Source: Candidatus Nealsonbacteria bacterium
GTDB taxonomy: Bacteria > Patescibacteriota > Minisyncoccia > Minisyncoccales > JAUWAW01
NCBI GenBank assembly: GCA_030601865.1
Contig: JAUWAW010000001.1
Span: 46,433-110,432, forward strand
DNA: 64,000 nt
Direction of reading: 5' to 3'
The notes under the pieces were generated by a model. It did not search any database. It worked only from the letters and a program-made list of their open reading frames with translations, and was not told the DNA's origin. How positions within the stretch are numbered: position 1 is the stretch's first letter; the number at the start of each line of letters is the position of its first letter. The position numbers and the translations under genes were made by a program. This document shows positions 9,452-62,829 of the stretch, piece after piece.

Positions 9452-9456
9452 AAACA

Positions 9457-13250: not shown

Positions 13251-13287
13251 TAACAGTGCGACGGGTCTGTCGCACTGTTAGTGCGAC
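13244..13287. repeat. Double hairpin / 19-bp-arm palindrome at the dcd stop / MtrA-like start junction
   Basis: gtcgcactaacagtgcgac-gggtct-gtcgcactgttagtgcgac; each arm is itself an 8-bp hairpin; supplies the last ~13 codons of dcd. Confidence 0.85.
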
Positions 13288-15948: not shown

Positions 15949-15954
15949 AATGAA

Positions 15955-16090
15955 ATAACCAATAACCAAGATACAATAACCAAACAAATCTCAATAACCA
16001 ATAATCAATAACCAATTATATAATGTTTGGTTATTGGTGTTTGAAGATTGGTTATTGTTTGGTTATTGTTTCTTGTATCTTGGTGATTGA
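15955..16090. repeat. ~130-bp long-hairpin repeat (AATAACCAA arm / TTGGTTATT arm), copy 1
   Basis: About 90 percent identical by eye to 56757-56883 and in the same orientation; lies between the nusG stop and the rplK start. Confidence 0.85.
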
Positions 16091-16639: not shown

Positions 16640-16652
16640 ATTTGAGCTCTAA

Positions 16653-16710
16653 TTCAAGATTATATATTTATACATTAGCGAATCAAGGTTCTAGCGGAGC
16701 GTTAGCGAGG
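16653..16710 (-). promoter_or_regulatory. Repeated promoter-like cassette, copy upstream of nusG
   Basis: Minus strand AGAACC..AGAACC-TTGATT(16686-16681)-N16-TATAAT(16664-16659)-CTTGAATT, 13 nt before the nusG ATG. Confidence 0.6.
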
Positions 16711-16717
16711 CAGGTTC

Positions 16718-16918
16718 TTATAATACAAACTTGTTCAGTAAAGTGCTAAATAAAAAGTCCACGCTCCCCAAAAAAATGGCCACAGCAATTGAGGCGCCAA
16801 TAACAATCAAAGTGTATCTCAAAGTCTCCTGACGAGTAGGCCAGTTAACTTTTTTAATCTCTAGTCGCACTTCTTTCAAAAAAGTGACAATTTTTTTAGG
16901 AAAGGCGCTAATAGCCAT
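16718..16918 (-). CDS. secE: Preprotein translocase subunit SecE
   Basis: 66 aa; EVRLEIKKVNWPTRQET followed by a single TM helix; canonical position upstream of nusG. Confidence 0.88.
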   Translation of the reverse strand: MAISAFPKKIVTFLKEVRLEIKKVNWPTRQETLRYTLIVIGASIAVAIFLGSVDFLFSTLLNKFVL

Positions 16919-16923
16919 GTTCT

Positions 16924-16992
16924 TAATTCAAGATTATATATTTATATATTAGCGAATCAAGGTTCTGACGAGCGTTAGCGAGGCAGGTTCTT
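16924..16992 (-). promoter_or_regulatory. Repeated promoter-like cassette, copy upstream of secE
   Basis: TTGATT(16960-16955)-N16-TATAAT(16938-16933)-CTTGAATT; near-identical to 16653-16710 and related to 62704-62829. Confidence 0.6.
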
Positions 16993-17052
16993 AAAAACGG
17001 CCTTGCCGGCCATTTTTTATGGTAGCAAGCTAAAAGCAGGATGTCAACCCAG

Positions 17053-21181: not shown

Positions 21182-21417
21182 TTTGCATTTTGTATTTTTA
21201 ATTTAGTTATAGCAGCTATCTCTCTGGCAATGCCCAGATGACAAAAACAATCATGCGCTCTATTGGGCAGAACATCAATATCCAAAATCCAATCTTTGCC
21301 TTTTTTCTCAACGCTCTCCACCTCAAAACTATGCATGGTCAAAAGCTGAGCCAAGTCCTTTGGTTTAGGCAGTTTCTTATTAAAAAAAGATTGTAGCCAA
21401 TTGTAAGAGAAAATCAT
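21178..21417 (-). CDS. pheT: Phenylalanine--tRNA ligase beta subunit, separate N-terminal segment (B1-like)
   Basis: 79 aa; MIFSYNWLQSFF...DIDVLPNRAHDCFCHLGIAREIAA matches the PheT N-terminus; no OB tRNA-binding domain. Confidence 0.8.
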   Translation of the reverse strand: MIFSYNWLQSFFNKKLPKPKDLAQLLTMHSFEVESVEKKGKDWILDIDVLPNRAHDCFCHLGIAREIAAITKLKIQNAK

Positions 21418-21419
21418 AA

Positions 21420-21457
21420 CCCTACGAATTACGAATTATTACGAATATACGAATAAT
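21420..21457. repeat. TACGAAT-array element (family 5), 4 heptamers, directly upstream of the pheT N segment
   Basis: ccc-tacgaat-tacgaat-tat-tacgaat-a-tacgaat-aat. Confidence 0.8.
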
Positions 21458-21460
21458 TAA

Positions 21461-22303
21461 TTATTTAATTGCTAAATTTTTGTGTCTTTCCAATCCTTCT
21501 GCATAAAGCTTCTGGATTTGGGCAGCGCTCAGGGCTTGGGAATAGATGCGGACGTCGTCGATGAGGCCGTGAAACTTATCACTATCTGTAAGGCTATAAG
21601 CCCCTATTAAACACTTCTTATCTGGCGTCGCTGTTGGCAAAGAAGACTGACCACCCAAGGCTATCTGTTTACCGTCTACATATATCTTTAAATTCGTTCC
21701 ATCAGCGACGCCAACCACATAATGCCAAGTGTTTAACTCCAAAAAACCACTACCAGAATCAAGGGCACCAAAAGTCCCTTTCAATCTAATACTACCATTC
21801 AACTCAATGCTTAGGATATAGTTGTGAACACTGAAAACCGGAGACTGCCCTTTGCTCAAAATAGTTCTCCAATTATTACGTGAAATTTGCTTTATCCACG
21901 CTCCTACTGTTAATCCGTCAGTAATATCTAAAGTTGAATCAGTCCCGCAATCCACATAATTATCTATTCCGTCAAAACTCAAAGCCATGCCACCAGTGCC
22001 TCCGCCAGGAACTTCTACTCCTTGAGCCTGAACAGCTCCATAAATAGTGCCATCATTACCATAGCCAGACCTGTCAGGAGTTTTATTGCCTTCTATTGTC
22101 TCAAAGCTCCAAATACCAACTGCTTCTGCTCCTAAAGCATTCTGAATTGACTGACTGAATTGTAAGGATTTAACAAGTTCGGCTGCTCTTCTTTTTCCCG
22201 GTAAGTCCAAGGCGACCAAAACAATACTGGCCAATAACCCGATAATCGCAATGGCTACTAATAGTTCAATAACAGTAAAAGAATTTTGTGTCTGGAATTT
22301 CAT
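21461..22303 (-). CDS. Type IV pilin-like (prepilin N-terminal helix) protein with LamG / concanavalin-A-like lectin domain
   Basis: 280 aa; FTVIELLVAIAIIGLLASIVL hydrophobic helix; C-terminal LamG hallmarks (LSFDG..NYVDCG, WHYVVGV, IDDVRIYSQALSAAQI). Confidence 0.8.
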   Translation of the reverse strand: MKFQTQNSFTVIELLVAIAIIGLLASIVLVALDLPGKRRAAELVKSLQFSQSIQNALGAEAVGIWSFETIEGNKTPDRSGYGNDGTIYGAVQAQGVEVPGGGTGGMALSFDGIDNYVDCGTDSTLDITDGLTVGAWIKQISRNNWRTILSKGQSPVFSVHNYILSIELNGSIRLKGTFGALDSGSGFLELNTWHYVVGVADGTNLKIYVDGKQIALGGQSSLPTATPDKKCLIGAYSLTDSDKFHGLIDDVRIYSQALSAAQIQKLYAEGLERHKNLAIK

Positions 22304-26112: not shown

Positions 26113-26158
26113 AGTTAACCCCCCCTGCGACATCTTTTTGATCTCGCAGGGTTTAACT
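26113..26158 (+). promoter_or_regulatory. Structured 5' leader hairpin upstream of the NYN gene
   Basis: agttaaccccccctgcga-catctttttgatc-tcgcagggtttaact; shares the cctgcga/tcgcagg core with family 2. Confidence 0.5.
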
Positions 26159-26770: not shown

Positions 26771-27403
26771 ATGGAACTCAAAAAACCTGACATCCGTTAT
26801 CTTAATAATATGAAAGAGGTACTTTGTGACCAGGAGTGGGCAAAAGATGCTCCTAATCTTGAGCTTTATTATATGTATCGCTACACAAAACGCGACGGCG
26901 CTTTGAGATATGACATTACTGAAATCCCATTTCAAATGTTAGGCAAAGAATATGTTAAAACAAAAGGCCACAGTCACGCAGGCGCCGAAACCTACGAGGT
27001 TTTACAAGGCAAAGCTATCTTCCTTCTCCAAAAATGTAACGAGAAAAAACCTGACGAGAAGACTTCTCGTCAGGTTGAGGATGTTTATGCGGTTGAGGTA
27101 AAAAGTGGTGATAAGGTATTTATTCCTGCTCATTACGGACATGTAACCATTAATCCCGGACCCGAAGACCTCAAAATGGCAAATTGGGTTTCCGACGCAT
27201 TCAAGTCAGATTATTCCCTTTATCTTGAAAAACAAGGCGCTTGCTATTACTGTATTAAAGGAAATCGGCCCCCATCACTCTGCAAGAGTGAGGGGGTAAA
27301 CTGGATTAAAAACGAAAATTATGGTAAAGTGCCAGAACTAAGATTTGAAAAGCCAAACAAAAATATTCCTGAAGATTTAAAGAAAGCTTTGATGGGAGAA
27401 TAA
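26771..27403 (+). CDS. pgi: Cupin-type (archaeal-type) glucose-6-phosphate isomerase
   Basis: 210 aa; TKGHSHAGAETYEVLQGKAIFLLQ and SGDKVFIPAHYGHVTINPG match Pyrococcus-type PGI as recalled. Confidence 0.8.
   Translation: MELKKPDIRYLNNMKEVLCDQEWAKDAPNLELYYMYRYTKRDGALRYDITEIPFQMLGKEYVKTKGHSHAGAETYEVLQGKAIFLLQKCNEKKPDEKTSRQVEDVYAVEVKSGDKVFIPAHYGHVTINPGPEDLKMANWVSDAFKSDYSLYLEKQGACYYCIKGNRPPSLCKSEGVNWIKNENYGKVPELRFEKPNKNIPEDLKKALMGE
27048..27076. repeat. 14-bp-arm palindrome in frame inside cupin PGI
   Basis: aacctgacgagaag-a-cttctcgtcaggtt; encodes KPDEKTSRQV in a loop about 12 aa longer than in Pyrococcus PGI. Confidence 0.85.
27269..27296. repeat. Family-8 palindrome (CCCCC..CAC..CTGCAA..GTG..GGGGG) in frame inside cupin PGI
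   Basis: cccccatcactc-tgcaa-gagtgaggggg; encodes RPPSLCKSEG; related to the yraN copy at 54282. Confidence 0.8.
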
Positions 27404-33254: not shown

Positions 33255-34229
33255 ATGTCGTTTTCAATAGGCATTATTGGTCTGCCCAATGCGGGCAAGT
33301 CCACCCTATTTAAGGCCTTAACCAAAAAAGAGGTTGAAATCGCTCCCTATGCTTTTACCACTCGAGACCCCAATATTGGTATTGTTTCTGTTCCCGATAT
33401 AAGGTTAAAAAAAATTGCTGAAAAGATAAAGCCCCAAAAAATAACCCCCACTTTTATTAAATTTGTAGATATCGCTGGGTTGGTAAAAGGTGCCCATAAG
33501 GGAGAGGGTCTAGGCAACCAATTTTTGGCACATATTAGAAACTGCGATGCTGTGGTGGAGGTGGTGCGAGCTTTTGAAAACGCTGAAATAGAACATGTTG
33601 AGGGCTCTGTTGAGCCAAAAAGAGACATTGACATAATTAAAACAGAACTCTTGATGAAAGATTTGGAAATTTTGGAAAAATGCGGTCTTTTTCCAAAAAT
33701 TAAAGAGCAAGTATCTCAAGACAAACTAATTTCAGAAATGAATCTGTCGGAAGAAGAAAAACTTGCCATCAAAGAGTATCAATTTTTAACTGAAAAGCCC
33801 AGAGTTTTTGTTTTTAATGTATCGGGAGGCCATCCCGATAGGAGCGACGAAACGCTTTCTCTGGATCTCAAGTTAGAAGAAGAACTTTCTGAACTCTCAG
33901 AAGCAGAAGCAGAAGAATTAGGCATGGACTCCCAACTTGATAAATTAATCACCGCCTGCTACAATATCCTTGACCTGATTACTTTTTTTACTGTCACCGG
34001 GGGGAAAGAGACCAGGGCCTGGACTCTAAAAAAAGATTCAAAAGTGTTTGAAGCAGCTGGCTACGTCCATTCTGATTTTGCGGAAAAATTTATCAAAGCC
34101 GAAGTCATTCCCTGGCAACAATTAGTAGAAGCTCAATCCTGGACAGGGGCCCGTGAAAAAGGCTGGCTCAGAACAGAAGGAAAAGAGTATATAGTCAAGG
34201 ACGGAGATGTAATTGAATTCAAAATATAA
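33255..34229 (+). CDS. ychF: Ribosome-binding ATPase YchF (short form)
   Basis: 324 aa; GIIGLPNAGKSTLFKALT P-loop and C-terminal TGS-like domain (EGKEYIVKDGDVIEFK). Confidence 0.9.
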   Translation: MSFSIGIIGLPNAGKSTLFKALTKKEVEIAPYAFTTRDPNIGIVSVPDIRLKKIAEKIKPQKITPTFIKFVDIAGLVKGAHKGEGLGNQFLAHIRNCDAVVEVVRAFENAEIEHVEGSVEPKRDIDIIKTELLMKDLEILEKCGLFPKIKEQVSQDKLISEMNLSEEEKLAIKEYQFLTEKPRVFVFNVSGGHPDRSDETLSLDLKLEEELSELSEAEAEELGMDSQLDKLITACYNILDLITFFTVTGGKETRAWTLKKDSKVFEAAGYVHSDFAEKFIKAEVIPWQQLVEAQSWTGAREKGWLRTEGKEYIVKDGDVIEFKI

Positions 34230-34316
34230 CCCTACGAATTACGAATTCATACGAATATACCAATAATTATCCCTTATTAAAAATTCGTATATTCGTAAGT
34301 ATTCGTAATTCGTAGG
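34230..34316. repeat. Inverted pair of TACGAAT arrays (family 5) forming a ~27-bp-stem hairpin in the rpsF leader
   Basis: ccctacgaattacgaattcatacgaatata ... tatattcgtaagtattcgtaattcgtagg; the right end supplies the GGAG 5 nt before the rpsF ATG. Confidence 0.85.
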
Positions 34317-34321
34317 AGAAT

Positions 34322-35273
<952 letters not shown>

Positions 35274-40488: not shown

Positions 40489-41640
40489 TTAACATATAAT
40501 TATTCCGCCGCCTAAAAGTTTTTCTCCTTTATAGAAAACCACTGATTGACCCGGGGTGACGGCGCGTTGGGGCTTGGCAAAAATTACTTTACAGCGCCTG
40601 CCCGCTATTTTTTTTATTGCTTCAACTTCAATTACTGGCGAACGATACCTTATTTTCGCTTTTATCCCAACTATTGGAGTTGAACTCCAATAGTTTGAAA
40701 TCCAGTTAACATCTTTGACAATCAATTCTTTTTTTTCCAAATGTTTTTCGTTCTTGGTGACAATTAAAGCATTATTTTTGACATCCTTGTCTAAAACATA
40801 GTATGGACCTCCGGCAAGCCCTATCCCCTTTCGCTGACCAATAGTATAAAACCACAACCCCTGATGCTCGCCAATACTACGAGAACAGTTCTCGTAGTAT
40901 TCTAAGATGGGGCCAGGATTTGTTTTAAGATGTTTTCTCAAAAATTCCTCTGTTGTTTTTTTAATAAAGCAAACTTCTTGAGATTCTCTGGCTTCAAGTA
41001 CCGGCAAGTCAAACTCCTTGGCCATCTGTCTTACTTGTCTTTTGGTGTAATCCCCAATGGGAAACAAAATGTGTTTTAATTGTTTCTGGCCCAACTGCCA
41101 TAAAAAATATGATTGATCTTTTTCTTTATCTTTTGCTCTTACCAATGTGTAATTTTGTATTTTTGTGTCAGAATTCTGCGACCTGCCCGTAATGCTTCGC
41201 ATAGCGATACAGGCGGGTCGCAGGATTTTGACACAGTTTAGATCTTTATTTGTATTTTCACATTTACGCGCATAGTGGCCAGTGGCAATAAAATCTGCGT
41301 CCAAGCCCAAGGCTTTTTTCAATAAAAGTCCAAATTTTATTTCTTTGTTGCAGACCACACAAGGGTTGGGGGTTCTGCCTCTTTTATATTCTTTCAAAAA
41401 ATAATTAATGATTTTTCTCTTAAACTCTTTTCTTAAATCCAAAACCAAAAATGGAATGCCTAATTTTTTAGCAATTTTTCTGACTCTTCTCTCACTTTCT
41501 CTGAAATGAGACGACTCATAAAGTTTCATAAAAACTCCTGTTACATTAAAATTAGCCCTTTTAAGAAGGGCTGCTGCTACCGAACTATCCACGCCACCGG
41601 ACATCGCCACTATTACCTTATTTTTTCTTTTTGCTTTCAT
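40489..41640 (-). CDS. mnmA: tRNA-specific 2-thiouridylase MnmA
   Basis: 383 aa; VAMSGGVDSSVAA, NPCVVCN, ATGHYAR, KDQSYFLW, CFI; carries two palindromic elements in frame. Confidence 0.92.
   Translation of the reverse strand: MKAKRKNKVIVAMSGGVDSSVAAALLKRANFNVTGVFMKLYESSHFRESERRVRKIAKKLGIPFLVLDLRKEFKRKIINYFLKEYKRGRTPNPCVVCNKEIKFGLLLKKALGLDADFIATGHYARKCENTNKDLNCVKILRPACIAMRSITGRSQNSDTKIQNYTLVRAKDKEKDQSYFLWQLGQKQLKHILFPIGDYTKRQVRQMAKEFDLPVLEARESQEVCFIKKTTEEFLRKHLKTNPGPILEYYENCSRSIGEHQGLWFYTIGQRKGIGLAGGPYYVLDKDVKNNALIVTKNEKHLEKKELIVKDVNWISNYWSSTPIVGIKAKIRYRSPVIEVEAIKKIAGRRCKVIFAKPQRAVTPGQSVVFYKGEKLLGGGIIIC
40874..40900. repeat. Family-4 palindrome inside mnmA
   Basis: atactacgagaac-a-gttctcgtagtat; encodes YYENCSRSI (thrS copy encodes YENSSRSI). 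Confidence 0.85.
41164..41235. repeat. Family-2 element (TGTGTCAAAATCCTGCGA/TCGCAGGATTTTGACACA), expanded copy in frame inside mnmA
   Basis: tgtgtcagaattctgcgac-[34-nt insert]-gtcgcaggattttgacaca; 72 bp = 24 codons (CVKILRPACIAMRSITGRSQNSDT). Confidence 0.85.
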
Positions 41641-46997: not shown

Positions 46998-47028
46998 AAA
47001 ACTATCGAGAACTGTTCTCGATAGTTTT
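46998..47028 (-). terminator. Family-4 variant palindrome acting as the lepA terminator
   Basis: aaaactatcgagaa-ctg-ttctcgatagtttt; 14-bp stem; on the minus strand it is followed by ttttggttt. Confidence 0.6.
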
Positions 47029-48833
47029 TAACTTCTAAGGAGTTTCAGGTATATTTCCTCGGGAATAGGGGTGCGGCCGTGTTTTTGGAGAATTTTTTTG
47101 CCTTTGCGTTGTTTGACTAAGAGTTTCTTTTTGCGGGTAAAGTCGCCGCCGTACAGGGGCGCGGTCACATCCTTGCGCAGGGCGCGGATATCCTCACGCG
47201 CGATTATTTTGCCGCCAATTTGGGCTTGAAGCGATTGGGTAAAGTTTTTTGGAGGCAGGACATCCTTTAATCTTTTGAGAAACTGACGCGCCTGCTTGCG
47301 CGCCGCGTCTTTATAAACAATGCGCGAGAAACAGGGCTTCAGTTCGCGCGAAACCAAAAACTCAAGTTTAATAAGGTCGCTTTTTTTATACTCGTCAAAT
47401 TCGTAACTAAAGGAAGCGAACCCCTTGCTAATGCTTTTCAGTTTGTCTAAAAAATCCTCAATAATCTCAGCAAGCGGCGCATAAAACTCTAAAAGCAAGG
47501 TATCTTTATCTAAAACTTGCGAGGAAATAAACTTGCCTCGTTTCTGCTCAACTAATTCATGGATTTTGCTGTTGTGTCTGGTCGGGCTGACAATGTTTAA
47601 TTTAACCCAGGACTCCGCTATATAGTCAATCTCGCCCTGGTCCGGCAGTTCTGCGGCCGAATGGACTAAAATCGGCTCTTTTTGCTTTTTTGTCTTTACC
47701 TTGAAAACAACCGAAGGAGAAGTAAGAACCACTTGGGTGCCATACTCCCGCTTTAACCTTTCCATGGTGATTTCCAGATGAAGCATACCTAAAAAGCCGA
47801 TGCGCAGTCCCCTGCCTAAATAAGGATTGCTCATAGGTTTGGCTGTGAGAGAAGTGTCGTTGAGCCGCAGTTTGTCAAAATTGGCTTTCAGGGTTTCAAA
47901 GTTTTGGCCTTGCCCTTGCCCCTGCCCCGGAAAAACATTGGCAAAAACCAATGGCTTGGGCTCTTTATAGCCAGGCAGGCGAGGACAGTCCTCGCCTGAT
48001 TTGGTTGTTATTGTCTCGCCGATTCTGACGTCTGAAACGTTTTTTATGCCCGTGGCGATGTAGCCGATTTGGCCGGCTATTAGTTTTGGCACAGGACTAC
48101 GTTGCGGTATGAAAATGCCGACTTCTCTTGTTTCGGCGCGGACTTTTTGATTGACAAAATAAATTTGGTCGCCTTTTTTGATTTCGTTGCCAAACAGCCG
48201 CACATAGGCAATTACTCCCTGAAAATTGTCGTAAATTGAATCAAAAACCAGGGCTTTTAATACTCCTCCGCCCTCTGTTTTTGGCTGCGGCGCCTGCTTT
48301 ATCAACGCTTCAAGAACTTTCTCTATATTCTCGCCTGTTTTGGCGGAAATAGTTAAAATTTCCCCTGAATCAATACCTAAAAGATTGGCTAATTCCTGCT
48401 TAACTTTTTCTAATTGCTCCTCGCTCGGACAAACATCTATTTTATTGATAACCGGTATTATTTTCAAACTCTGCGCCTGCGCCAGGCGCAGATTAGCCAG
48501 GGTCTGTGCCTGAATGCCTGAAACCACGTCAACCAATAAAATAACACATTCAACAGCGGCCAAAGACCGTTCTACTTCATAGGAAAAATCCATATGGCCA
48601 GGCGTGTCAATCAAGTTTAATTGGTACTTGCGGCCGGCCAGACCATACTCCATTGCACAGGGCTGCATCTTGATAGTGATGCCGCGCTCTCTTTCCAAAT
48701 CCATCTGGTCCAAAACCTGTTCGCGCATCTGCTCTTTCTTCAAGGTGTTGGTAATTTCCAAAAACCGGTCAGCCAGAGTTGATTTGCCGTGGTTTATATG
48801 CGCGATTATAGAGAAATTTCGTATATTTCCCAT
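47028..48833 (-). CDS. lepA: Elongation factor 4
   Basis: 601 aa; IRNFSIIAHINHGKSTLADR G1 motif, DTPGH, NKID, LepA C-terminal domain; visibly more GC-rich than its neighbours. Confidence 0.95.
   Translation of the reverse strand: MGNIRNFSIIAHINHGKSTLADRFLEITNTLKKEQMREQVLDQMDLERERGITIKMQPCAMEYGLAGRKYQLNLIDTPGHMDFSYEVERSLAAVECVILLVDVVSGIQAQTLANLRLAQAQSLKIIPVINKIDVCPSEEQLEKVKQELANLLGIDSGEILTISAKTGENIEKVLEALIKQAPQPKTEGGGVLKALVFDSIYDNFQGVIAYVRLFGNEIKKGDQIYFVNQKVRAETREVGIFIPQRSPVPKLIAGQIGYIATGIKNVSDVRIGETITTKSGEDCPRLPGYKEPKPLVFANVFPGQGQGQGQNFETLKANFDKLRLNDTSLTAKPMSNPYLGRGLRIGFLGMLHLEITMERLKREYGTQVVLTSPSVVFKVKTKKQKEPILVHSAAELPDQGEIDYIAESWVKLNIVSPTRHNSKIHELVEQKRGKFISSQVLDKDTLLLEFYAPLAEIIEDFLDKLKSISKGFASFSYEFDEYKKSDLIKLEFLVSRELKPCFSRIVYKDAARKQARQFLKRLKDVLPPKNFTQSLQAQIGGKIIAREDIRALRKDVTAPLYGGDFTRKKKLLVKQRKGKKILQKHGRTPIPEEIYLKLLRS
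47906..47930. repeat. Hexanucleotide-type repeat encoding (GQ)4 inside lepA
   Basis: ggccttgcccttgcccctgccccgg; encodes PGQGQGQGQ. Confidence 0.8.
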
Positions 48834-50434
48834 TAATATTCTTCTTCAAAGATTTGGGCGGTGAAAGTGTAGAGGTCAATATCTTCTTCTTTCCAGCAGT
48901 CCCAGGGCAGACCGACTTTTTGAAAGCAAAGTTCTCCCATAAATTTTTCTAAATCCCAATTATTGTCAGTAGCTACTTGGGGCAGAAAAACACCATTTCT
49001 CAAGCCCTTTCTAATTTGCACGCCGTGTTTGCCAATCTCAATTCCCTGCCAATTATCAATTTTCTCTAAGGGACTCAAAACCGAAATTTCATAGTCAAGC
49101 TCACCAAGTTCATCCTCTCCCACAGGATAAAATCTTTTATCCTGGGTGGCAGCCGCAATGGCCATTTGAGAAACAACTTGATACAGAGGTATGTCAGTGG
49201 GTGAAAAACGGCCAATGCAGCCCCGTAGCTGGCTCTGCTTCTTTAAAGTAACAAAAGCACCCAAGTTTTGATTTAATATGGATTCTTCAACTTGAAATTC
49301 TGGAATTTTACCTTCTTTGACAAAAGTTTCAACTGAATTCTTAGCGATTTCCAAAAGTTTTTCTTGCTCTGTTTTCTTTAATAAATGACTCTGTCTTGGT
49401 CCAAAAAAGCCAATGGCTGCATAGCCAACCACTTGCGATTTATCACCTATGGGCACGTCTCCGGAATTGGCATATTTTAATAATTTAATTTCTTCAGCAG
49501 CCAATTCTTTGGCTACTAACATGATTGTTTTGATAGCATCTTCTGCGCAAACAAAAGTTACTGCTCCAGGAATATTCTCTTTTTCCAAGTCCTGAATTGT
49601 TTTTTCTAACTCCCCTACCCTACCGGTTAAAATGGCTTCAATGGTTTTGCTATCTGCCTGTTGAGCATCACCATAGCTAGGATAATGCGACAAATCAGAA
49701 CTGGCAATCAGTAAAATATTCTTACCTCTGATATTTTTAACAATGGCTTGAGCTAAAATTTTGTAATCTTCTTCTGGGCTGTTGCCCAAAATAATGGGTA
49801 CAATCCGTGGTACGTGCACGGACAAAGGAGATCCTTCGGCCTTCGGCCTCAGGATGACTTGCAAAAAAGGTAATTCCACCTCAAGGGAATGCTCTCTTTG
49901 ATGAACACTCTCTCTGAAAAAAATTCTTTCGTTTTCTGCAATAATTTTTTCAGCTAATTGAGAATCTATTTCTACTTCTCCTAAGGGAGTTTTATAAAAA
50001 CCTCGTGGGAAAATAGAAATACCTTCAAATCTCTCATAATGGCTGTTGCCAATAAGAATCACCGTAGCAAATTGGTTCAAATCGTGACGATCGTCATAAC
50101 TTGAACCACCCATCAGTTGCTTAAAGCCGTAGGCGGCCACGGGGCCAGAAAATGGATAGCCAGCATGGGGCAGAACTAAAGCAAAAATCTCGCCTTCGGT
50201 TTCTGGCGGACTTGCCTTTTCCAAAAATTGGTCAATCATTTTCTCTAACTCCTCAGGGTCTCCAGGATAAAATTGTCCAGCCACTGCCGGCTGCCGAATT
50301 ATTTTTTCTTCTTTTTCAAAAACGTCTGAAACCATAGCTTTTTGAGAAATATCTTCCCCTCCCTTAAATATTAAAAGTATACTAATCGCACCAACAACAA
50401 AAATTAATAAAGCTATTATTAGAACTTTCTTCAT
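48833..50434 (-). CDS. AmmeMemoRadiSam system fusion: protein B (Memo-like) + protein A (AMMECR1), with N-terminal membrane anchor
   Basis: 533 aa. TM helix at residues ~3-23. Memo motifs PAVAGQFYPG, LPHAGYPFSGPVAA, SSDLSHYP. AMMECR1 motifs GAFVTLKK..LRGCIGRF, DKRFYPV, ISVLSP, GVFLPQVA. Confidence 0.85.
   Translation of the reverse strand: MKKVLIIALLIFVVGAISILLIFKGGEDISQKAMVSDVFEKEEKIIRQPAVAGQFYPGDPEELEKMIDQFLEKASPPETEGEIFALVLPHAGYPFSGPVAAYGFKQLMGGSSYDDRHDLNQFATVILIGNSHYERFEGISIFPRGFYKTPLGEVEIDSQLAEKIIAENERIFFRESVHQREHSLEVELPFLQVILRPKAEGSPLSVHVPRIVPIILGNSPEEDYKILAQAIVKNIRGKNILLIASSDLSHYPSYGDAQQADSKTIEAILTGRVGELEKTIQDLEKENIPGAVTFVCAEDAIKTIMLVAKELAAEEIKLLKYANSGDVPIGDKSQVVGYAAIGFFGPRQSHLLKKTEQEKLLEIAKNSVETFVKEGKIPEFQVEESILNQNLGAFVTLKKQSQLRGCIGRFSPTDIPLYQVVSQMAIAAATQDKRFYPVGEDELGELDYEISVLSPLEKIDNWQGIEIGKHGVQIRKGLRNGVFLPQVATDNNWDLEKFMGELCFQKVGLPWDCWKEEDIDLYTFTAQIFEEEY
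49828..49858. repeat. Family-1 element copy in frame inside the Memo domain
   Basis: gagatccttcggccttcggcctcaggatgac; encodes (minus strand) VILRPKAEGSP. Confidence 0.85.
50074..50107. repeat. Family-3 element (TTCAAATCGTnnCGATCGTCATAA..TGAA) in frame inside the Memo domain
   Basis: ggttcaaatcgtgacgatcgtcataacttgaacc; encodes SSYDDRHDLNQ. Confidence 0.8.
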
Positions 50435-50482: not shown

Positions 50483-51595
50483 TTATTCCCAAACACCAGG
50501 GATTTTTTCGCCATCGGAGCATTGGCCGTTTTGGAGGTTGTTTTGGGTGACAAAAAAGCCTTGCCTGACAATGGCCGGCTCTCCTGATTCAGGGCAAAAG
50601 GTGGTGCTGCCTTCGGGGTCGTAAATGTTGCCGGTGTAAACATATTTCAGGCCATACTCCTGAGCCATTTGCCGGGCTTTCTGCAAGGTCTCAATAGGAG
50701 TGGGAGGCAGATTAAGTAACTTGTAATCAGGATGAAAACGGGTAAAATGCAAAGGGATATCTGTGCCCAGATTTTCTTTAATCCATAAAATTAAATTTCT
50801 GAAATCTTCTTCCCGGTCGTTTTCTGTGGGAATAACCAAATTGACAATTTCCAGCCAGACACCTTGTTCCTTGATAATCTTCATTGCTTCCAAAACAGGC
50901 CCCACATGGCCAGCTGTCATTTCCTGATAAAATTTGTCATCAAAGCCCTTAAAGTCAATTTTGTAAGCATCAATGTAGGGCAAAAGGTCTCTTAAGGGTT
51001 CGGGGTTAATGTAGCCAGCGCTAATAACCACATTTTTCAAACCGTTTTCATGCGCCAATAGAGCAATGTCTAACATATATTCGTAAAAAGCAGTTGGTTC
51101 AGTATAAGTAAAAGCAATTGATTGGGCGCCTGATTTTAAGGCCTTTTCCACCACTTGTTGGGGCGTCATTTTTATTGATGACACCTCCCAAGGGAAAACC
51201 TGGGCAATCTGCCAGTTTTGGCAAAATTTACACTGCAAATTGCAGCCGGTAGTGGCAATAGAATAAGTTTTAGTGCCGGGCAGAAAATGATAAAGCGGTT
51301 TTTTCTCAATGGGGTCAAGGTGTGAGGCAACAATTTGCCCGTAAACTATGGAGTAAAGTTCTCCCTCTATATTCTTTTTGGCTCGGCAAATCCCAATTTG
51401 ACCCTCAGATAAAATACATCTATTGGGACAAAGATTACATCTCACCATTTTACTGCCCAATTTCTCATAGTACTTGGCTAAATGTAAATCTTGGGGAGTA
51501 ACCCCTCCCCCGCGCTCTCTACCCCAAATAAGAAACACAGCCAAACCAACAATGATGATTAAAAATATAATGGCGCCTATCTTTGCTTTAAGCAT
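50483..51595 (-). CDS. AmmeMemoRadiSam system radical SAM enzyme, with N-terminal TM helix
   Basis: 370 aa; TGCNLQCKFCQNW radical-SAM cluster and N-terminal CNLCPNRC...ICRAK cluster; PFL-activase-like. Confidence 0.85.
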   Translation of the reverse strand: MLKAKIGAIIFLIIIVGLAVFLIWGRERGGGVTPQDLHLAKYYEKLGSKMVRCNLCPNRCILSEGQIGICRAKKNIEGELYSIVYGQIVASHLDPIEKKPLYHFLPGTKTYSIATTGCNLQCKFCQNWQIAQVFPWEVSSIKMTPQQVVEKALKSGAQSIAFTYTEPTAFYEYMLDIALLAHENGLKNVVISAGYINPEPLRDLLPYIDAYKIDFKGFDDKFYQEMTAGHVGPVLEAMKIIKEQGVWLEIVNLVIPTENDREEDFRNLILWIKENLGTDIPLHFTRFHPDYKLLNLPPTPIETLQKARQMAQEYGLKYVYTGNIYDPEGSTTFCPESGEPAIVRQGFFVTQNNLQNGQCSDGEKIPGVWE

Positions 51596-51609
51596 AAAAC
51601 CCTTTTATT

Positions 51610-51645
51610 TGTGTCAAAATCCTGCGATCGCAGGATTTTGACACA
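51610..51645. repeat. Family-2 element, perfect 36-bp palindrome, intergenic
   Basis: tgtgtcaaaatcctgcga|tcgcaggattttgacaca; contains GCGATCGC; identical to 56120-56155. Confidence 0.95.
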
Positions 51646-51651
51646 GTTTTA

Positions 51652-51966
51652 CTACAAAAAATAGAGATAAAATAAGAATATCAGAATAACTAAACTCAAG
51701 ATAATAACATAAATATTTGTCCATTTTTCGTCCTTGAGCCATCTTCTCAGGGTGAATTTAAGATAAATAAAAACATGCAAAATAAAGAATATAATGAAAG
51801 GAATGGGCAGCCATTTATCGTGCAGTTTCTCTGCTAAAACCGGGTCCATAATGCCTTTGGTCATACCATAACCAGAAATAAAATACAACATCATCAGTAA
51901 AGCCAAAACATAGCCAGAAAACCTGGCTGTTTTAATGAGAATTCTATTGATTTGAGTCTTGTCCAT
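51652..51966 (-). CDS. Small 3-TM membrane protein
   Basis: 104-aa ORF co-oriented with the radical SAM gene; His residues within TM segments; no family recognised. Confidence 0.5.
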   Translation of the reverse strand: MDKTQINRILIKTARFSGYVLALLMMLYFISGYGMTKGIMDPVLAEKLHDKWLPIPFIIFFILHVFIYLKFTLRRWLKDEKWTNIYVIILSLVILIFLFYLYFL

Positions 51967-54152: not shown

Positions 54153-54566
54153 ATGCTAAGTCGCAAACAACTGGGGAAATTTGGTGAAGATATTGCTGTT
54201 AAATATCTCAAAAAGCGCGGCTATAAGATTTTGGCAAGGAATTGGCAAAACAAATGGGGAGAGATTGATATTGTGGCCTCGCCCCCCACCACTTTTCTGC
54301 AAAAAGTGGTGGGGGGTAAAAAGAAAAAAATAATTGTTTTCTGCGAAGTTAAAACAATAGAAAAAAAGCCGGGGTTTAGCCCGGAAGATGAAATTGATTG
54401 GAAAAAAGAAAGGCAGCTTTCAAAAATGGCTCAAATTTATTTATCCAGTAATAAAATTCCTCTGGAAAGCCCTTGGCGGATTGATGTTTTAGCCATAGAA
54501 ATTGACCCTTTCTCTGAAAATCCTTCCATCCGCCACTTTGAAAACGTTATCGAGGATAGTTATTAA
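54153..54566 (+). CDS. yraN: YraN-family (UPF0102) endonuclease-like protein
   Basis: 137 aa; GEDIAVKYLKKRGYKILARNW..GEIDIVA ... VFCEVKT; interrupted in frame by a 35-bp palindrome. Confidence 0.85.
   Translation: MLSRKQLGKFGEDIAVKYLKKRGYKILARNWQNKWGEIDIVASPPTTFLQKVVGGKKKKIIVFCEVKTIEKKPGFSPEDEIDWKKERQLSKMAQIYLSSNKIPLESPWRIDVLAIEIDPFSENPSIRHFENVIEDSY
54282..54316. repeat. Family-8 palindrome, 15-bp perfect stem, in frame inside yraN
   Basis: ccccccaccactttt-ctgca-aaaagtggtgggggg; encodes PPTTFLQKVVGG between GEIDIVA and the VFCEVKT strand. Confidence 0.9.
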
Positions 54567-54749: not shown

Positions 54750-56117
54750 TTGATGAACGGAAATTCCTCAAATGAATTGCCAGACAAGATGCCCCCGCAG
54801 AGCGTGGAGGCGGAGCAATGCCTTTTGGGCTGTTTAATGCTGGACAAAAACGCTGTTATCAAGGTGGCTGATTTTTTAGAGCCACGGGATTTTTATAAAA
54901 GAACGCATCAGCAAATCTATCAAGCTGCTATTGACCTCTTTGAAAAAAGAGAGCCGATTGATGTCTTAAGTTTATCCACTCGCTTAAAAGAAAAAGGAGG
55001 ATTAGATGAAATTGGCGGTAATACTTATTTAACCCAGTTGGTTAATTCTGTGCCTACGGCCAGCAATATTTTAAATTATGCTAAAATTGTGCAGCGCAAA
55101 AGAATTTTGCGTGACCTCATTTCTGCTTCTCAGGAAATAGGCGGGATGGGCTATAAAGAAGCGGATGACGTGGATGAGCTTCTTGACCAGGCGGAAAGAA
55201 GAATTTTCAGTATTGCTCAAAAAAGCTTAAGTCAAAGATTTGTGCTAGTCAAAGATACTTTAGAAGAAGCTTTTGAGAGATTTGATACGCTTTCCAAAGA
55301 AGGAGCCAAGCTGCGAGGCATTCCCACCGGCTTTTCTGACCTTGATAATATTTTAGCCGGCTTGCAAAAATCAGACCTCATAATTTTGGCCTCACGCCCC
55401 AGTTTGGGTAAATCAAGCATGGCCGTGGACATTGCCCGGTATGTGGCCGTGCATGAAAAAATCCCGGTGGGTATATTTAGTTTGGAAATGTCCAACGACC
55501 AGATTGTGGATAGGTTAATTGCAGCTCAAGCCAATGTTGACCTTTGGAGATTGAGAACGGGTCGGCTTTCAAGTGAGGGAGAAAATAATGATTTTGTCAG
55601 AATTCGCAAAGCACTTGATGTTCTTTCCTTAGCCCCTATTTTTATTGACGATGCAGCCACTTCTAATATTTTGCAAATGAGGGCCATGGCCAGAAGATTG
55701 CAGGCAGACCAGGGCTTAGGTTTAATCATTGTTGATTATTTGCAGCTTATGGAACCGAGAAATCCCAATGTCAACATGGTGCAGCAAGTAACTGAAATCT
55801 CTAAGTCCTTGAAAGGGCTGGCCCGAGAACTCCAGATACCGGTTTTAGCCCTCTCGCAATTATCACGTGCTGTTGAACAAAGAACACCCCAGATTCCAAG
55901 ATTATCCGACCTTCGTGAAAGCGGCTCGCTGGAGCAGGATAGCGACGTGGTTTTGTTTATACATCGTGAGGATCGCTACAAGCCCGACACGCCTAGGAAA
56001 AATATCGCTGATATACTTATTGCCAAACACAGGAATGGACCCATCGGCAAAATAGAATTATATTTTGATGAACAAAGGGTCACTTTCCGCAACCTGGAGA
56101 AAAAACAACAAGAGTAA
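54750..56117 (+). CDS. dnaB: Replicative DNA helicase DnaB
   Basis: 455 aa; PPQSVEAEQCLLGCLM N-terminal domain, Walker A SRPSLGKSS, IIVDYLQLM, SQLSR. No intein. Likely start is the ATG at 54753. Confidence 0.95.
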   Translation: MMNGNSSNELPDKMPPQSVEAEQCLLGCLMLDKNAVIKVADFLEPRDFYKRTHQQIYQAAIDLFEKREPIDVLSLSTRLKEKGGLDEIGGNTYLTQLVNSVPTASNILNYAKIVQRKRILRDLISASQEIGGMGYKEADDVDELLDQAERRIFSIAQKSLSQRFVLVKDTLEEAFERFDTLSKEGAKLRGIPTGFSDLDNILAGLQKSDLIILASRPSLGKSSMAVDIARYVAVHEKIPVGIFSLEMSNDQIVDRLIAAQANVDLWRLRTGRLSSEGENNDFVRIRKALDVLSLAPIFIDDAATSNILQMRAMARRLQADQGLGLIIVDYLQLMEPRNPNVNMVQQVTEISKSLKGLARELQIPVLALSQLSRAVEQRTPQIPRLSDLRESGSLEQDSDVVLFIHREDRYKPDTPRKNIADILIAKHRNGPIGKIELYFDEQRVTFRNLEKKQQE

Positions 56118-56119
56118 AC

Positions 56120-56155
56120 TGTGTCAAAATCCTGCGATCGCAGGATTTTGACACA
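56120..56155. repeat. Family-2 element, perfect 36-bp palindrome between dnaB and recR
   Basis: Identical to 51610-51645. Confidence 0.95.
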
Positions 56156-56160
56156 AAATT

Positions 56161-56756: not shown

Positions 56757-56883
56757 CACCAATAACCAAGAAACAATAACCAAACAAATTTCAATAACCA
56801 ATAACCAATTTCCAAACTGTTTGGTTATTGATGTTTGAAGATTGGTTATTGTTTGGTGATTGTATCTTGTATCTTGGTTATTT
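56757..56883. repeat. ~130-bp long-hairpin repeat, copy 2
   Basis: Between convergent recR and rplU; overlaps the last codons of rplU; same orientation as copy 1. Confidence 0.85.
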
Positions 56884-57172
56884 CTACTTCTGTAAAGGGC
56901 TGTCTATGCCCTGTTTTTTTCTTATACCGTGTTTTAGGTTTGTACTTAAAAACAATTACTTTTTTGCCTTTGCCCTGTTTCAAAACTTTGCCCATAACTT
57001 TGGCTCCTTTAACCAAAGGAGTGCCAATCTCCACTTTTTTATTCTTCTCCACTAATAAAACCTGGTCAAAGATTACTTCTTTGCCCTCTTTCTCCTCTAT
57101 TTTCTCTATTTTGATTTTATCCCCGGGAGCAACAAGATATTGTTTGCCTCCGGTTTTAATGACAGCTAACAT
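56846..57172 (-). CDS. rplU: 50S ribosomal protein L21
   Basis: 108 aa; MLAVIKTGGKQYLVAPGD...GHRQPFTEVEI; no rpmA follows. Confidence 0.92.
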   Translation of the reverse strand: MLAVIKTGGKQYLVAPGDKIKIEKIEEKEGKEVIFDQVLLVEKNKKVEIGTPLVKGAKVMGKVLKQGKGKKVIVFKYKPKTRYKKKTGHRQPFTEVEITKIQDTITKQ

Positions 57173-57174: not shown

Positions 57175-58212
57175 TTATTCTAAACTGGCAGGTCTTTCTA
57201 TTTGTTTAACTTCCATTTTGGACTGGCCGCCAGTTACCTTGAGCACATCTTTATCAATCTTGCCAAATTCTTTGTAAGCATTATTATAGCTGTTTATCGT
57301 GGTACCAAGATGAGTGCCCAGTTTCTCCATATAATTATTGTAGTTTGCCAAGTGGCGGCCGAGCATCTCTACTCTTTTGCGGATTTCCTTGGCCGACTTC
57401 TCAATTTGAAACGCTCTCAAGCCCTGCAAAATTGTCTGTAAATAAGCGTAAAAAGAAGTGGGAGAAACAATATGAACGTGCTTTTCTCGCACTGCATACT
57501 CAATCAAATCCCGGGTGTTGCTTTTAATCGCTCCAATCTTATTAACCAATAAATCATAATAAACTGCTTCAGCTGGAATAAACATAAAAGCAAATCCCAA
57601 AGTGCCTTCCCGGGGTCTGATATACTTGGCTGTTTCTTCAATGCGGTTTTTCAAATCCTGTCTGAAGGTTTTTTCTAATTGTTCTCGTCGGCCCGGGTCT
57701 TTTTCTTCAATAATTCTATTATAATTTTCTAAGGAAAACTTAGAGTCAATGGGAATAATTTTATCTTCTCTAACAAATATGACCGCATCAACAATTTGAC
57801 CGTCTTTAAATTGATACTGCATTTGATACTGACTGGGGCTGAAAACATTTTTTAATAACTCTTCCAAATAATATTCTCCTAAAATGCCACGCTGCTTAGG
57901 ATTTTTTAAGATATTTTCCAAGGACTGCAGCTGCTCAGCAAAACCAACCACTTGCTTGTTGGTTTCATCAAGCTTGGTCAACTTTTCTGTTACATCGCGG
58001 ATAATTTTAGCGCTCTGACTAAATTGCTCTTGGATGGCTTTACCGGATTCAGACAATCTATTATCCAGAACTTGATTAAGATTATTAAGTTGCTGCTGCA
58101 GCATTAACAATGACTGAGTTTCCTTTTCTGGCCTTCTTTTTAATAGCAAAAAAATAACCATGCCCAATCCTATCAAAAGAACCAAAAAAAATATCAAAAA
58201 AAAGTAATCCAT
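57175..58212 (-). CDS. rmuC: DNA recombination protein RmuC
   Basis: 345 aa; N-terminal TM, coiled coil, RmuC nuclease-like domain (RGILGEYYLEELL, PIDSKF). Confidence 0.85.
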   Translation of the reverse strand: MDYFFLIFFLVLLIGLGMVIFLLLKRRPEKETQSLLMLQQQLNNLNQVLDNRLSESGKAIQEQFSQSAKIIRDVTEKLTKLDETNKQVVGFAEQLQSLENILKNPKQRGILGEYYLEELLKNVFSPSQYQMQYQFKDGQIVDAVIFVREDKIIPIDSKFSLENYNRIIEEKDPGRREQLEKTFRQDLKNRIEETAKYIRPREGTLGFAFMFIPAEAVYYDLLVNKIGAIKSNTRDLIEYAVREKHVHIVSPTSFYAYLQTILQGLRAFQIEKSAKEIRKRVEMLGRHLANYNNYMEKLGTHLGTTINSYNNAYKEFGKIDKDVLKVTGGQSKMEVKQIERPASLE

Positions 58213-58280
58213 TAGATTACTTTAGCATGAGAAATAAAATGAAGCAAGGAGGGGTGTCAACTCAATACTCCAAGCAAAAT

Positions 58281-58311
58281 CTTCAAATCGTTGCGATCGT
58301 CATAATCTGAA
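58281..58311. repeat. Family-3 element, copy downstream of the PaaX/Cas2-like gene
   Basis: cttcaaatcgttgcgatcgtcataatctgaag; 24-nt core identical to 58953-58976 and in the same orientation. Confidence 0.85.
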
Positions 58312-58316
58312 GTATG

Positions 58317-58931
58317 TTATTTTTCCTCCTTTAGTAAGTTAAGTATTTCTTCTGGTCGGTCAACTTTATCAACAGTGAAAATGAAAATATACTTCCTTAG
58401 TCCAGCATCATCTATTTCTTTTATGAAACTGGCAGGAATTGGATATTTACCGACATAGACACTTTTTTGAAGTTGTTGGAACTGCATCAAAAGAAGTTCT
58501 TGACGAATAATCCTTCTCCAATGTTTTCTTTTTTCAGGAATATCAAAAATCACTATTCTTAGTTTTCCGTCCCAAGGTTTTTTTAGAATTAAATATCTGT
58601 TTTCAACATAACTCACAACTTTCTTGCCTTTGTCAGTTAAATGATAAATTTTTTGTTTTGGGTCTTTGCTGATTAAACCATCCTCTATTAAACGATAGAG
58701 GTTTGTCTCTATTGTCTTTTTCTTAAAAGTCAGTTCTTTGTAAGATTTGACACCAAACATCTGCTTCATCAATCCAAAGGCAGGATAAGAGTCGGGCAAT
58801 CCTCTTAAAAAGTCCTTTCCTCCTTCTTTGAGGGAAAACAAAATATAGGAGGCAGCATTCAATCCCTGATTAAATAATCTTTGGGCAAAGTTTCTTTTTT
58901 TAAGTTGAAAAAAATATCTTTTTGTCGGCAT
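58317..58931 (-). CDS. PaaX-like regulator: winged-helix domain + Cas2-like (ferredoxin-fold) domain
   Basis: 204 aa; LYRLIEDGLISKD...YHLTDKGKK (wHTH); WDGKLRIVIFDIPEKRKHWRRIIRQELLLMQFQQLQKSVYV (Cas2/PaaX-C-like). Confidence 0.65.
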   Translation of the reverse strand: MPTKRYFFQLKKRNFAQRLFNQGLNAASYILFSLKEGGKDFLRGLPDSYPAFGLMKQMFGVKSYKELTFKKKTIETNLYRLIEDGLISKDPKQKIYHLTDKGKKVVSYVENRYLILKKPWDGKLRIVIFDIPEKRKHWRRIIRQELLLMQFQQLQKSVYVGKYPIPASFIKEIDDAGLRKYIFIFTVDKVDRPEEILNLLKEEK

Positions 58932-58947: not shown

Positions 58948-58985
58948 TTCTTCAAATCGTTGCGATCGTCATAAGTTGAAGGAAG
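58948..58985. repeat. Family-3 element, copy upstream of the PaaX/Cas2-like gene
   Basis: cttcttcaaatcgttgcgatcgtcataagttgaagga. Confidence 0.85.
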
Positions 58986-59004: not shown

Positions 59005-59052
59005 AATTTCAACGGCATAAAATCTCAACGGCATAGAATTTCAACGGCAACG
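59005..59052. repeat. Three tandem 16-bp direct repeats with core TCAACGGCA
   Basis: Cores at 59009, 59025 and 59041 (exact 16-bp phase); they span the stop codon of the antiporter gene and lie upstream of the PaaX-like gene. Confidence 0.85.
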
Positions 59053-59984
59053 AAAATGATGTAAAGGAAAAGTAAAACCAAGGCTTCTTTTTTGGTGATT
59101 TTTTGGCCGGTGCGAACGATAATTAAGAAAAATATGGCGGCTATGACCAGGAAAATCCGGGCGATAGCAAAAGGAGAAAAGTCCGTAATCTCAATGGGAC
59201 AAATCAAACAAACCACGCCCAAGACCAAGGTGGCAGGCACAATAATAGAACCCATTAGATTTCCCAGGACCATCCAATTCTGACCTCTCTTAGCAGAAAC
59301 AATGGCAAAATAGATTTCGGGTAAGGCATTAACCAAGCCGATGATTAAAATTCCCATTATGGGAATTGATAAGTTAAAGCTCTCAAAAAAATAAATACTG
59401 CTATTAACCAAACCTTCAGCTGCTAAAAACAGAAGGGCTAAAGCTAAAACCATTTTCCCTAAGTCCTTGACAAAGGTCTTAAACTCTCTGATAATTCCTT
59501 CGTCCGCATCTTCATAAACTTTTTTGAATCTTTCTTTTTTAGAAAAAAGCCAAAAAATATAAAGAGTAAAAGCTGAAAGCAAAACTAAGCCATCTCCCCT
59601 GCCCAATTTTCCATCTAAGATTAAAATTAAGGGCAAGATGGCCACCCCGGCGGTAAAAAGAGTGCTGGTCTGAACCATGCGACTGGGGGCAGGGAGAGTG
59701 GCTCCGGCAACCAAAACTGCCAAAGCCACAGCTAAAGTCAAATCAACCACATTCCCTCCCATTATGTCGCCCAAAGAAAGCTGAGGAATCTTATGCAAGG
59801 CAGCATTTATGCCAACAAAAAGATTGGGCAGAGAACCAACCACCGCCATAACAAAGAAAGCCAGCACAAACTCCCGCCAACCCAAATATTTAGCCATTCT
59901 TATTAAAGCGCTGACCAACCACGAGCCCGCACAAAAAAGCATCAGACACGAACCTATGAAAATAAAGATATAAAGCCAAATCAT
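59025..59984 (-). CDS. Ca2+/Na+ (CaCA family) antiporter
   Basis: 319 aa; about 10 TM helices; alpha-repeat motifs GSLPNLFVG and VNALPEIYFA. Confidence 0.8.
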   Translation of the reverse strand: MIWLYIFIFIGSCLMLFCAGSWLVSALIRMAKYLGWREFVLAFFVMAVVGSLPNLFVGINAALHKIPQLSLGDIMGGNVVDLTLAVALAVLVAGATLPAPSRMVQTSTLFTAGVAILPLILILDGKLGRGDGLVLLSAFTLYIFWLFSKKERFKKVYEDADEGIIREFKTFVKDLGKMVLALALLFLAAEGLVNSSIYFFESFNLSIPIMGILIIGLVNALPEIYFAIVSAKRGQNWMVLGNLMGSIIVPATLVLGVVCLICPIEITDFSPFAIARIFLVIAAIFFLIIVRTGQKITKKEALVLLFLYIIFVAVEILCR

Positions 59985-62664: not shown

Positions 62665-62703
62665 CAAAAAAAACAAACTGTAACAAAATCAAATTTCTTT
62701 TAT

Positions 62704-62829
62704 TTCAAGAATATATGTTTATACATTAGCGAATCAAGGTTCTTGAGCGAAGCGAGAGGTTCTTAATTCAAGAATATGTGATTATTCCTTAGCGAATCAA
62801 GGTTCTCGAGCGAAGCGAGAGGTTCTTAA
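62704..62829 (-). promoter_or_regulatory. Two tandem 63-bp copies of the promoter-like cassette
   Basis: 62704-62766 and 62767-62829. Each reads on the minus strand AGAACC-N14-AGAACC-TTGATT-N16-TATATT/CATATT-CTTGAA. Copy B supplies the last 9 codons of the murF-like ORF. Confidence 0.6.

Follow-up and report, generated by a model that had tools for sequence, protein, structure and literature searches.

Short palindromic repeats in intergenic spacers and in frame within mnmA of a Patescibacteria genome

The mnmA gene, which encodes the tRNA 2-thiouridine synthase, lies intact on the minus strand at 40489-41640 of a 64-kb stretch of DNA (the window; positions given without a locus name are its coordinates) from a Parcubacteria-like genome of the Patescibacteria (Candidate Phyla Radiation, CPR), where it belongs to an iscS-nifU-mnmA-thiI operon. 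Within its open reading frame (ORF), the gene bears a 72-nt segment whose arms recur, joined as a 36-bp palindrome, in two intergenic spacers of the same window. How, then, did one and the same palindrome come to lie between genes and in frame inside a tRNA-modification gene? [quoted passage not shown] The G+C content of the window was 35-42%, and the nearest MnmA was only 62-66% identical to that of the window, the value varying between BLASTP and the MAFFT alignment.

The 36-bp palindrome and its copy in mnmA

The perfect 36-bp palindrome TGTGTCAAAATCCTGCGATCGCAGGATTTTGACACA, which consists of the arms TGTGTCAAAATCCTGCGA and TCGCAGGATTTTGACACA and is referred to here as family 1, was found without a mismatch at both 51610-51645 and 56120-56155, as had been stated in the original prediction, which was made from the bare sequence. 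No match to the 36-mer occurred in shuffled sequence, and a search of the window with the 18-nt half-site returned both spacer loci and the two arms in mnmA. Together with their conserved flanks, the spacer copies were identical over 42 nt, 51608-51649 (minus strand) being the reverse complement of 56116-56157 (plus strand), and the perfect arm in mnmA shared the same flank (22-23 nt of identity). On the sense strand, every family-1 copy showed the layout 5'-(T)AAAC-palindrome-AA-3', and the element is thus slightly asymmetric. The 51608-51649 copy sits in the Memo/AMMECR1/radical-SAM cluster, between a small ORF (51652-51966), whose stop codon lies 6 nt upstream, and the radical-SAM gene (50483-51595), whose ATG lies 14 nt downstream. 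The 56116-56157 copy fills the dnaB-recR spacer, starting 2 nt past the dnaB stop and ending 5 nt ahead of the recR ATG, and the TAA stop of dnaB falls inside the conserved TAAAC flank. The RNA hairpins of these spacer copies (-27 to -29 kcal/mol, z about -7) lie beside start codons, where they may have incidental effects on translational coupling or on the stability of the mRNA. The three family-1 copies occupy unrelated contexts up to 15 kb apart, and judged from their sequences they do not represent a segmental duplication.

The mnmA copy of family 1 occupies 41164-41235 on the minus strand and, as predicted, is exactly 72 nt long, which corresponds to 24 codons (residues 136-159, CVKILRPACIAMRSITGRSQNSDT). 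Both arms are present, 41164-41181 with 2 mismatches and 41218-41235 with none; the counts given originally, of 3 arm mismatches and a 34-nt insert between the arms, had to be corrected to 2 mismatches and a centre of 36 nt (41182-41217, minus strand). Both arm substitutions, GAT to AAT and TTT to TCT, are transitions located in the 3' arm; they turn D-F into N-S, a change which, as a conjecture, would be compatible with adaptation to a surface loop. The centre is GC-richer, prolongs the stem, and has the apex GCGAAGC on the sense strand, and the whole 72 nt folds into a single hairpin (-42.9 kcal/mol, z = -8.8). No second copy of this 36-nt centre exists in the window; the centre could be the tip of an element of full length, or else a further mini-hairpin nested in the middle. 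The earlier description of an expanded copy is sound as far as the two arms are concerned; since the centre extends the stem, the element is better read as a longer or a nested hairpin. The insert region includes the stretch CVKILRPACIAMRSITGR, and an empty site would be expected to read ...GATCTAAA|AATACAA.... For the 36-mer and the 72-mer alike, two of the three reading frames are open on both strands; thus, an in-frame survivor is not unlikely.

Comparison with other MnmA proteins showed that this segment is an insertion at the turn of a beta-hairpin. In an alignment, most of 33 close homologues lacked the segment. The loop between the GHY and DQSYF motifs, which spans 51 aa here (27 + 24), showed modes of 16, 20, and 25-26 aa among the 120 closest homologues, 88 of which fell within 16-27 aa, and about one in five close CPR homologues carried an expansion of its own in the same loop. 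In the solved MnmA structure 9hln, a 6-residue turn faces 36 residues of the window protein, the match being split in two, and in the AlphaFold (AF2) model the insert forms a loop with a predicted local distance difference test (pLDDT) score below 50 between strands 125-129 and 163-167 (mean pLDDT 62, low confidence). Because of the homologue alignment, the loop lengths, the match to 9hln, and the AlphaFold model, we interpreted the segment as an insertion, which the model would place in a surface loop compatible with the MnmA fold. The expectation that this region is shorter in typical MnmA was likewise borne out, an equally long segment not being the rule in orthologues. The PP-loop motif, the catalytic cysteines, and other invariant alignment columns are intact in the window protein, and the insert would be translated as a disordered loop of 24-25 residues. 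Counting the neighbouring C and a 2-nt duplication of AA brings the insert to 75 nt, again an in-frame gain.

Further palindrome families and parallels in other CPR genomes

A second family consists of three imperfect palindromes centred on CGATCG, with arms related to those of family 1 and the common core T..TCA...CGATCG...TTTGA. One of them, a 36-nt element at 50073-50108 (minus strand), lies in frame in the Memo domain of a Memo-AMMECR1 fusion gene, where it encodes the peptide GGSSYDDRHDLNQ and coincides with a 10-residue gap in human MEMO1. The other two are intergenic and also on the minus strand: 58280-58312 lies between rmuC (57175-58212) and a PaaX/Cas2-like gene (58317-58931), and 58949-58981 lies between the latter gene and a Na/Ca-exchanger gene (59025-59984). 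Family 2 therefore parallels family 1 in its distribution, with two spacer copies and one in-frame copy in a coding sequence (CDS). That the rmuC homologue adjoins two family-2 copies is probably a coincidence; RmuC is reportedly linked to limiting inversions at short inverted repeats.

The mnmA gene itself contains three palindromes (41164-41235, 40873-40901, and 40667-40697), and the second of these belongs to a third family, ACTACGAGAAC.GTTCTCGTAGT (the ACGAGAAC family), whose core ACGAGAA...TTCTCGT links mnmA, thrS, and a spacer. The mnmA copy (AATACTACGAGAACTGTTCTCGTAGTATT, 40873-40901, minus strand) is in frame (EYYENCSRSI), as is the copy in thrS (5686-5714, LYENSSRSIVK), which is 96.5% identical to it over 29 nt; a similar copy occupies the spacer after lepA (46998-47028), and another lies in gpi (27048-27076). 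Taken at the level of sequence comparison, the same repeats thus appear both in spacers and in frame within conserved genes at positions that orthologues lack, in mnmA, in Memo, and in the family shared by mnmA and thrS, which is the pattern associated with RPEs.

Long hairpins were in general excess. A scan for stems of 14 bp or more, allowing no more than 1 mismatch and loops of up to 8 nt, returned 14 hairpins against 0.2 in shuffles, an excess of about 70-fold, and 9 of the 14 were inside CDSs. Long near-perfect palindromes in CDSs were also recorded at 7731-7771, 13244-13287, 40667-40697, 47976-47998, 54282-54316, 7546-7577, 8491-8525, and 33667-33701, in hosts that include the linker of the miaB-miaA fusion, the C-terminus of dcd with its stop codon, mnmA, lepA, a YraN-like gene, and others. 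At 40667-40697, the segment is as long as in orthologues and hence no simple insertion, and the insertion status of the MiaB linker palindrome was not demonstrable from a PDB alignment. The host of the latter is a single ORF (7461-9419) in which MiaB (UPF0004 and radical SAM) is fused with MiaA (IPP transferase). Rfam 15, applied to the whole window at gathering score, returned just two tRNAs and assigned no palindrome to an RNA family.

We then considered the DNA of seven CPR mnmA loci with expanded loops (L022-L028). The MnmA beta-hairpin was found to be expanded by a local repeat in three other lineages. A spacer on the same contig as the L024 locus holds another copy of its extra segment (87% over 95 nt), and in L028 a second copy also lies in a spacer (96% over 76 nt) and forms a complete hairpin element (-43.7 kcal/mol) with terminal inverted repeats (TIRs). 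In L026, the element forms a pair (10402-10459 and 11583-11640, 98% over 58 nt) in two adjacent genes that is translated in both orientations, one copy lying in the MnmA loop and the second, in frame and oppositely oriented, within the linker that a thioredoxin-FeThRed_B fusion protein contains. The elements of L024, L027, and L028 have outer arms in common and different interiors, which resembles the arms-plus-centre anatomy of the mnmA copy in the window. No second copy of the insert was present in the contig DNA examined for L022, L023, L025, and L027; significant hairpins were observed in L023, L025, and L027.

A pair of mnmA alleles from related populations provided a parallel of another kind. 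The alleles of L029 (221-1384) and L030 (10001-11134) are 99.6% identical, and their sole difference is the insertion or deletion (indel) of a 30-nt GC-rich hairpin (PAFAKASAGK), which lies in another MnmA loop than the window insert; on this sequence evidence, they constitute a filled-site/empty-site pair. The 36-nt centre of the window element resembles the 30-nt L029 indel at its ends (CCCGCCT..TCGCTA..GCGGGCAAG), a resemblance that we regard as an unproven lead. In L030, the mnmA ORF at its 5' end and the Rrf2 gene upstream of it at its 3' end have a 34-nt repeat (8280-8313) in common. Full-text literature searches returned no account of palindromic repeats inside genes for Patescibacteria.

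Several other repeats were noted in the window. A hairpin in a 5' leader (26113-26158, plus strand) lies downstream of a promoter-like TTGACA-17-TATACT and upstream of a NYN-domain gene, and its inner part (26124-26150) does share CCTGCGA/TCGCAGG with family 1, as had been claimed; all 7 occurrences of this heptamer in the window are inside four hairpins, namely the family-1 elements and this leader. The rest of the hairpin bears no resemblance to the family, and its kinship to family 1 is uncertain. A 40-nt zero-spacer palindrome with a CGATCG centre (9421-9460) is located between the convergent miaB-miaA and gatB genes, and its arms are unrelated to those of families 1 and 2. Two AATAACCAA-rich elements of about 130 nt (15952-16088, in the rplK-nusG spacer, and 56757-56884, downstream of recR) are 88% identical to each other, and each is a long imperfect inverted repeat. 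A direct repeat of about 70 nt occurs four times (16650-16720, 16924-16993, 62700-62769, and 62763-62832), as two pairs 46 kb apart with 83-95% identity. A TACGAAT-rich repeat is found in three spacers (4146-4167, 21416-21461, and 34224-34323), the last copy, between ychF and rpsF, being an inverted repeat with 46-nt arms. A GC-rich hairpin (142-198, ATCCTGAGCGAAGCCCGCCC...GGGCGGGCGAAGCGAAGGAT) with GCGAAGC mini-hairpin motifs lies at the window's left edge.

Alternative explanations for the palindromes

We favored repeats over local signals because identical copies occur in unrelated contexts, because the identity extends into asymmetric flanks, and because the 36-mer was found zero times by chance. 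The spacer and in-frame copies of family 2 and of the third family, the excess of long hairpins, the length of the MnmA loop, the parallels in other CPR genomes, the L029/L030 pair, the open reading frames, and the literature on RPEs and REPs all point to the same explanation. According to this proposal, copies would be made or moved by an enzyme encoded outside the window and would survive only where they do little harm, either in spacers of a few nucleotides between co-directional genes or in surface loops or linkers of proteins, provided that their length and frame leave the ORF open; the mnmA copy would be an insertion at the tip of a beta-hairpin that left the catalytic motifs untouched. 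We infer that the elements moved by transposition rather than by another copying process, and that they are neutral.

Several observations weigh against such mobile repeats. Family 1 has just three known copies, and the six copies of families 1 and 2 all lie within 18 kb (roughly p = 0.01); genome-scale dispersal is thus unproven, and the original claim of a repeat family rather than a local duplication stands for the window, given the unrelated contexts and the related family 2, and does not extend beyond it. No palindrome built from the exact 18-nt half-site turned up in GTDB representative genomes, JGI metagenome contigs, or IMG/VR, collections without the source genome that gave single-arm chance hits only, and Logan contig L021, which adds 2.4 kb beyond the window, contained no copy. 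A Pfam scan of about 50 ORFs of the window returned housekeeping genes and no transposase, RAYT, or Y1 (Y1_Tnp) domain. For the window mnmA, no empty-site allele is available, and translation of its insert is assumed only. No clear target-site duplication is visible at the three family-1 copies, whose flanks are merely A/T-rich; a 2-nt AA duplication would fit the flanks of all three (AA(A)C ... AA(A/T)) and is indistinguishable from base composition. Finally, all copies of each family have one orientation relative to transcription, which could suggest a selected role at the RNA level.

The main rival builds on this last observation. In it, the palindromes are selected cis-acting signals, whether barriers to RNase III or exonucleases, translational-coupling hairpins, or DNA sites for a dimeric protein (operator, partition, or nucleoid). 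The uniform orientation in each family fits such a role, as do the stable RNA hairpins (z about -7) and the placement of the family-1 spacer copies inside operons, 2-6 nt past a stop and 5-14 nt before the next ATG, and REPs are known as working RNA elements (PMC3733652). The idea is weakened, however, by the coding-region copy in each family, where a signal has no obvious use, and by the half-sites in mnmA, which at 36 bp apart would destroy the fixed geometry of a dimer. Moreover, the hairpins have no following U-tract, the flanking genes (radical SAM, recR, mnmA, and Memo) are functionally unrelated, and the half-site search of the collections named above revealed no conservation outside the window genome. 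We consider a selected signal an unlikely explanation. A different origin without mobility would be the formation of palindromes in place, through template switching at quasi-palindromes, in which repair or replication templated by a hairpin makes inverted repeats perfect. Perfect symmetry such as that of the 36-mer would be the expected product of this process, many palindromes of the window are unique in sequence, and the 40667-40697 segment has the same length as in orthologues; yet it accounts neither for identical sequences of 36-42 nt at three unrelated loci and the 29-nt identity between mnmA and thrS, nor for the codons that mnmA (24) and Memo (about 10) have gained on balance, and for another element filled and empty alleles differing exactly by that element were seen (L029 versus L030). 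We consider it improbable that the families arose in this way; template switching may have perfected or extended copies after insertion, and may explain unique ones such as 40667-40697.

The core of the palindromes could itself be the functional unit. The central octamer of both spacer copies, GCGATCGC, is identical to HIP1, as was originally pointed out, and, as in cyanobacteria, the GCGATCGC/CGATCG core might serve as a Dam-like target or one of restriction-modification. Of the 8 CGATCG sites in the window, six or seven form the middle of a long palindrome, and GATC is about 4-fold depleted (41 sites versus 163 Markov-expected), yet the hairpin elements, which make up 1.5% of the window, contain 10 of the 41 sites. 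Whereas HIP1 is hyper-abundant genome-wide, the octamer occurs only three times in 64 kb, twice inside elements and once outside; it is a by-product of the joining of two arms (GCGA/TCGC) and is altogether missing from the mnmA copy. In addition, the six CGATCG-centred elements amount to two related families and thus to few independent events, and any zero-spacer palindrome has some palindrome of 4-6 nt as its centre. The rarity of the octamer, its origin at the arm junction, and its absence from the mnmA copy led us to reject the link to HIP1 as coincidental, so that the identity of the octamer remains and the connection does not, and a methylation motif as the unit of function appears very improbable. 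CTAG (18 versus 94 expected) and TCGA (47 versus 106) were also under-represented in the window, and GATCCTTCGG occurs three times (7968, 8514, and 49830). An artefact of assembly or a chimera would deserve attention insofar as library artefacts can create perfect palindromes and the source is a metagenome-assembled genome. However, the mnmA insert is found again in an independent assembly, that of run SRR14872663 in Logan (L001, overlapping the window), and this speaks against an artefact of assembly; the host genes are intact and collinear, the copies lie in three different contexts, and analogous elements occur in unrelated ENA and JGI assemblies; we thus give this explanation hardly any credence.

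Relation to known repeats and implications

If the palindromes are mobile repeats, as we propose, they should be compared with the short repeats already described in bacteria. RPEs (Ogata et al. 2000; summaries in PMC10969869 and PMC3184786) lie in frame inside housekeeping genes. According to these summaries, they share with the window elements the palindromic structure, the occurrence both in spacers and in frame in unrelated housekeeping genes with a peptide added without loss of the protein, the coexistence of several families in one genome, and the reduced genome of the host. In contrast, RPEs are described there as about 100-150 bp long and encoding a conserved peptide, whereas the window elements measure 27-72 nt, some of them being perfect zero-spacer palindromes, and their host belongs to the phylum Patescibacteria. 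Judged from these differences in length and composition, homology to the RPE families of Rickettsia is unlikely.

The GTAG- or CGTC-tagged REPs mobilised by RAYT (Di Nocera et al. 2013, PMC3733652) are likewise palindromes of 20-40 bp with an unpaired conserved end tag; most are situated downstream of ORFs, where the neighbouring genes are co-directional or convergent, occasional copies lie within genes, in loops and linkers, and REPs are probably transcribed as hairpins. In size and copy number, the window offers a 36-bp palindrome and three copies each of families 1 and 2 per 64 kb. The tag of the window elements, however, is (T)AAAC at the 5' side of the sense strand rather than GTAG or CGTC, neither of which occurs beside the stem; a GTAG at a stop codon (51652-51655) lies 6 nt away from one copy only. 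Their stems of 16-18 bp without a designed loop also differ from REP stems of 5-13 bp, and within the 64 kb no RAYT and no head-to-head dimers or clusters were seen. With MITEs such as Correia, Nezha, Chunjie, and ERIC (PMC10969869), the elements share non-autonomy, TIRs, long stem-loops, and insertion in AT-rich spacers inside operons with occasional in-frame fusion to ORFs; the TIRs are perfect 18-nt arms, and the mnmA copy consists of such arms plus 36 nt of internal sequence. In contrast to typical MITEs, the window elements are much shorter, essentially one TIR against the other without internal sequence, and show no unambiguous target-site duplication. We take their 5'-TG...CA-3' termini to resemble the ends of DDE transposons. 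No parent insertion sequence (IS) was identified: the window contains no autonomous IS with the same ends, and no matching ends turned up at exact 18-mer level in the GTDB, JGI, and IMG/VR collections. The elements are thus REP/MITE-like and RPE-like in behaviour and not members of those families; we did not file them as REPs or MITEs because their tag is neither GTAG nor CGTC and because a target-site duplication and a parent IS are not established.

Accordingly, the phenomenon is one known from Rickettsia, found here in a new phylum and at an unusually small size, and not a new kind of system; the novelty lies in how repeatedly a single MnmA loop has been colonised and in how widespread the repeats are within the window genome. 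A bolder extension, which we put forward only speculatively and consider unlikely as it stands, is that CPR genomes harbor a class of ultra-short hairpin elements not described so far, many of them CGATCG-centred, that are copied by a dedicated hairpin- or GATC-recognising enzyme, preferentially nest at the apexes of existing hairpins, and repeatedly colonise the same permissive loops of essential enzymes, the MnmA beta-hairpin having been reached independently in at least three lineages. If this were true, repeats would be the source of a measurable share of the "CPR-specific insertions" found in conserved proteins, and the strong depletion of GATC beyond the elements would point to some interaction with restriction-modification.

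Insertions found only in CPR proteins are commonly taken to be adaptations. Several of those considered here can be traced to repeat DNA, which offers a simple and testable origin for them and warns against over-interpreting CPR insertions in annotation, structure prediction, and phylogeny. Taken together, the results suggest that even streamlined genomes of about 1 Mb tolerate selfish palindromes inside essential tRNA-modification genes, and they identify one loop of MnmA as a natural insertion-tolerant site.

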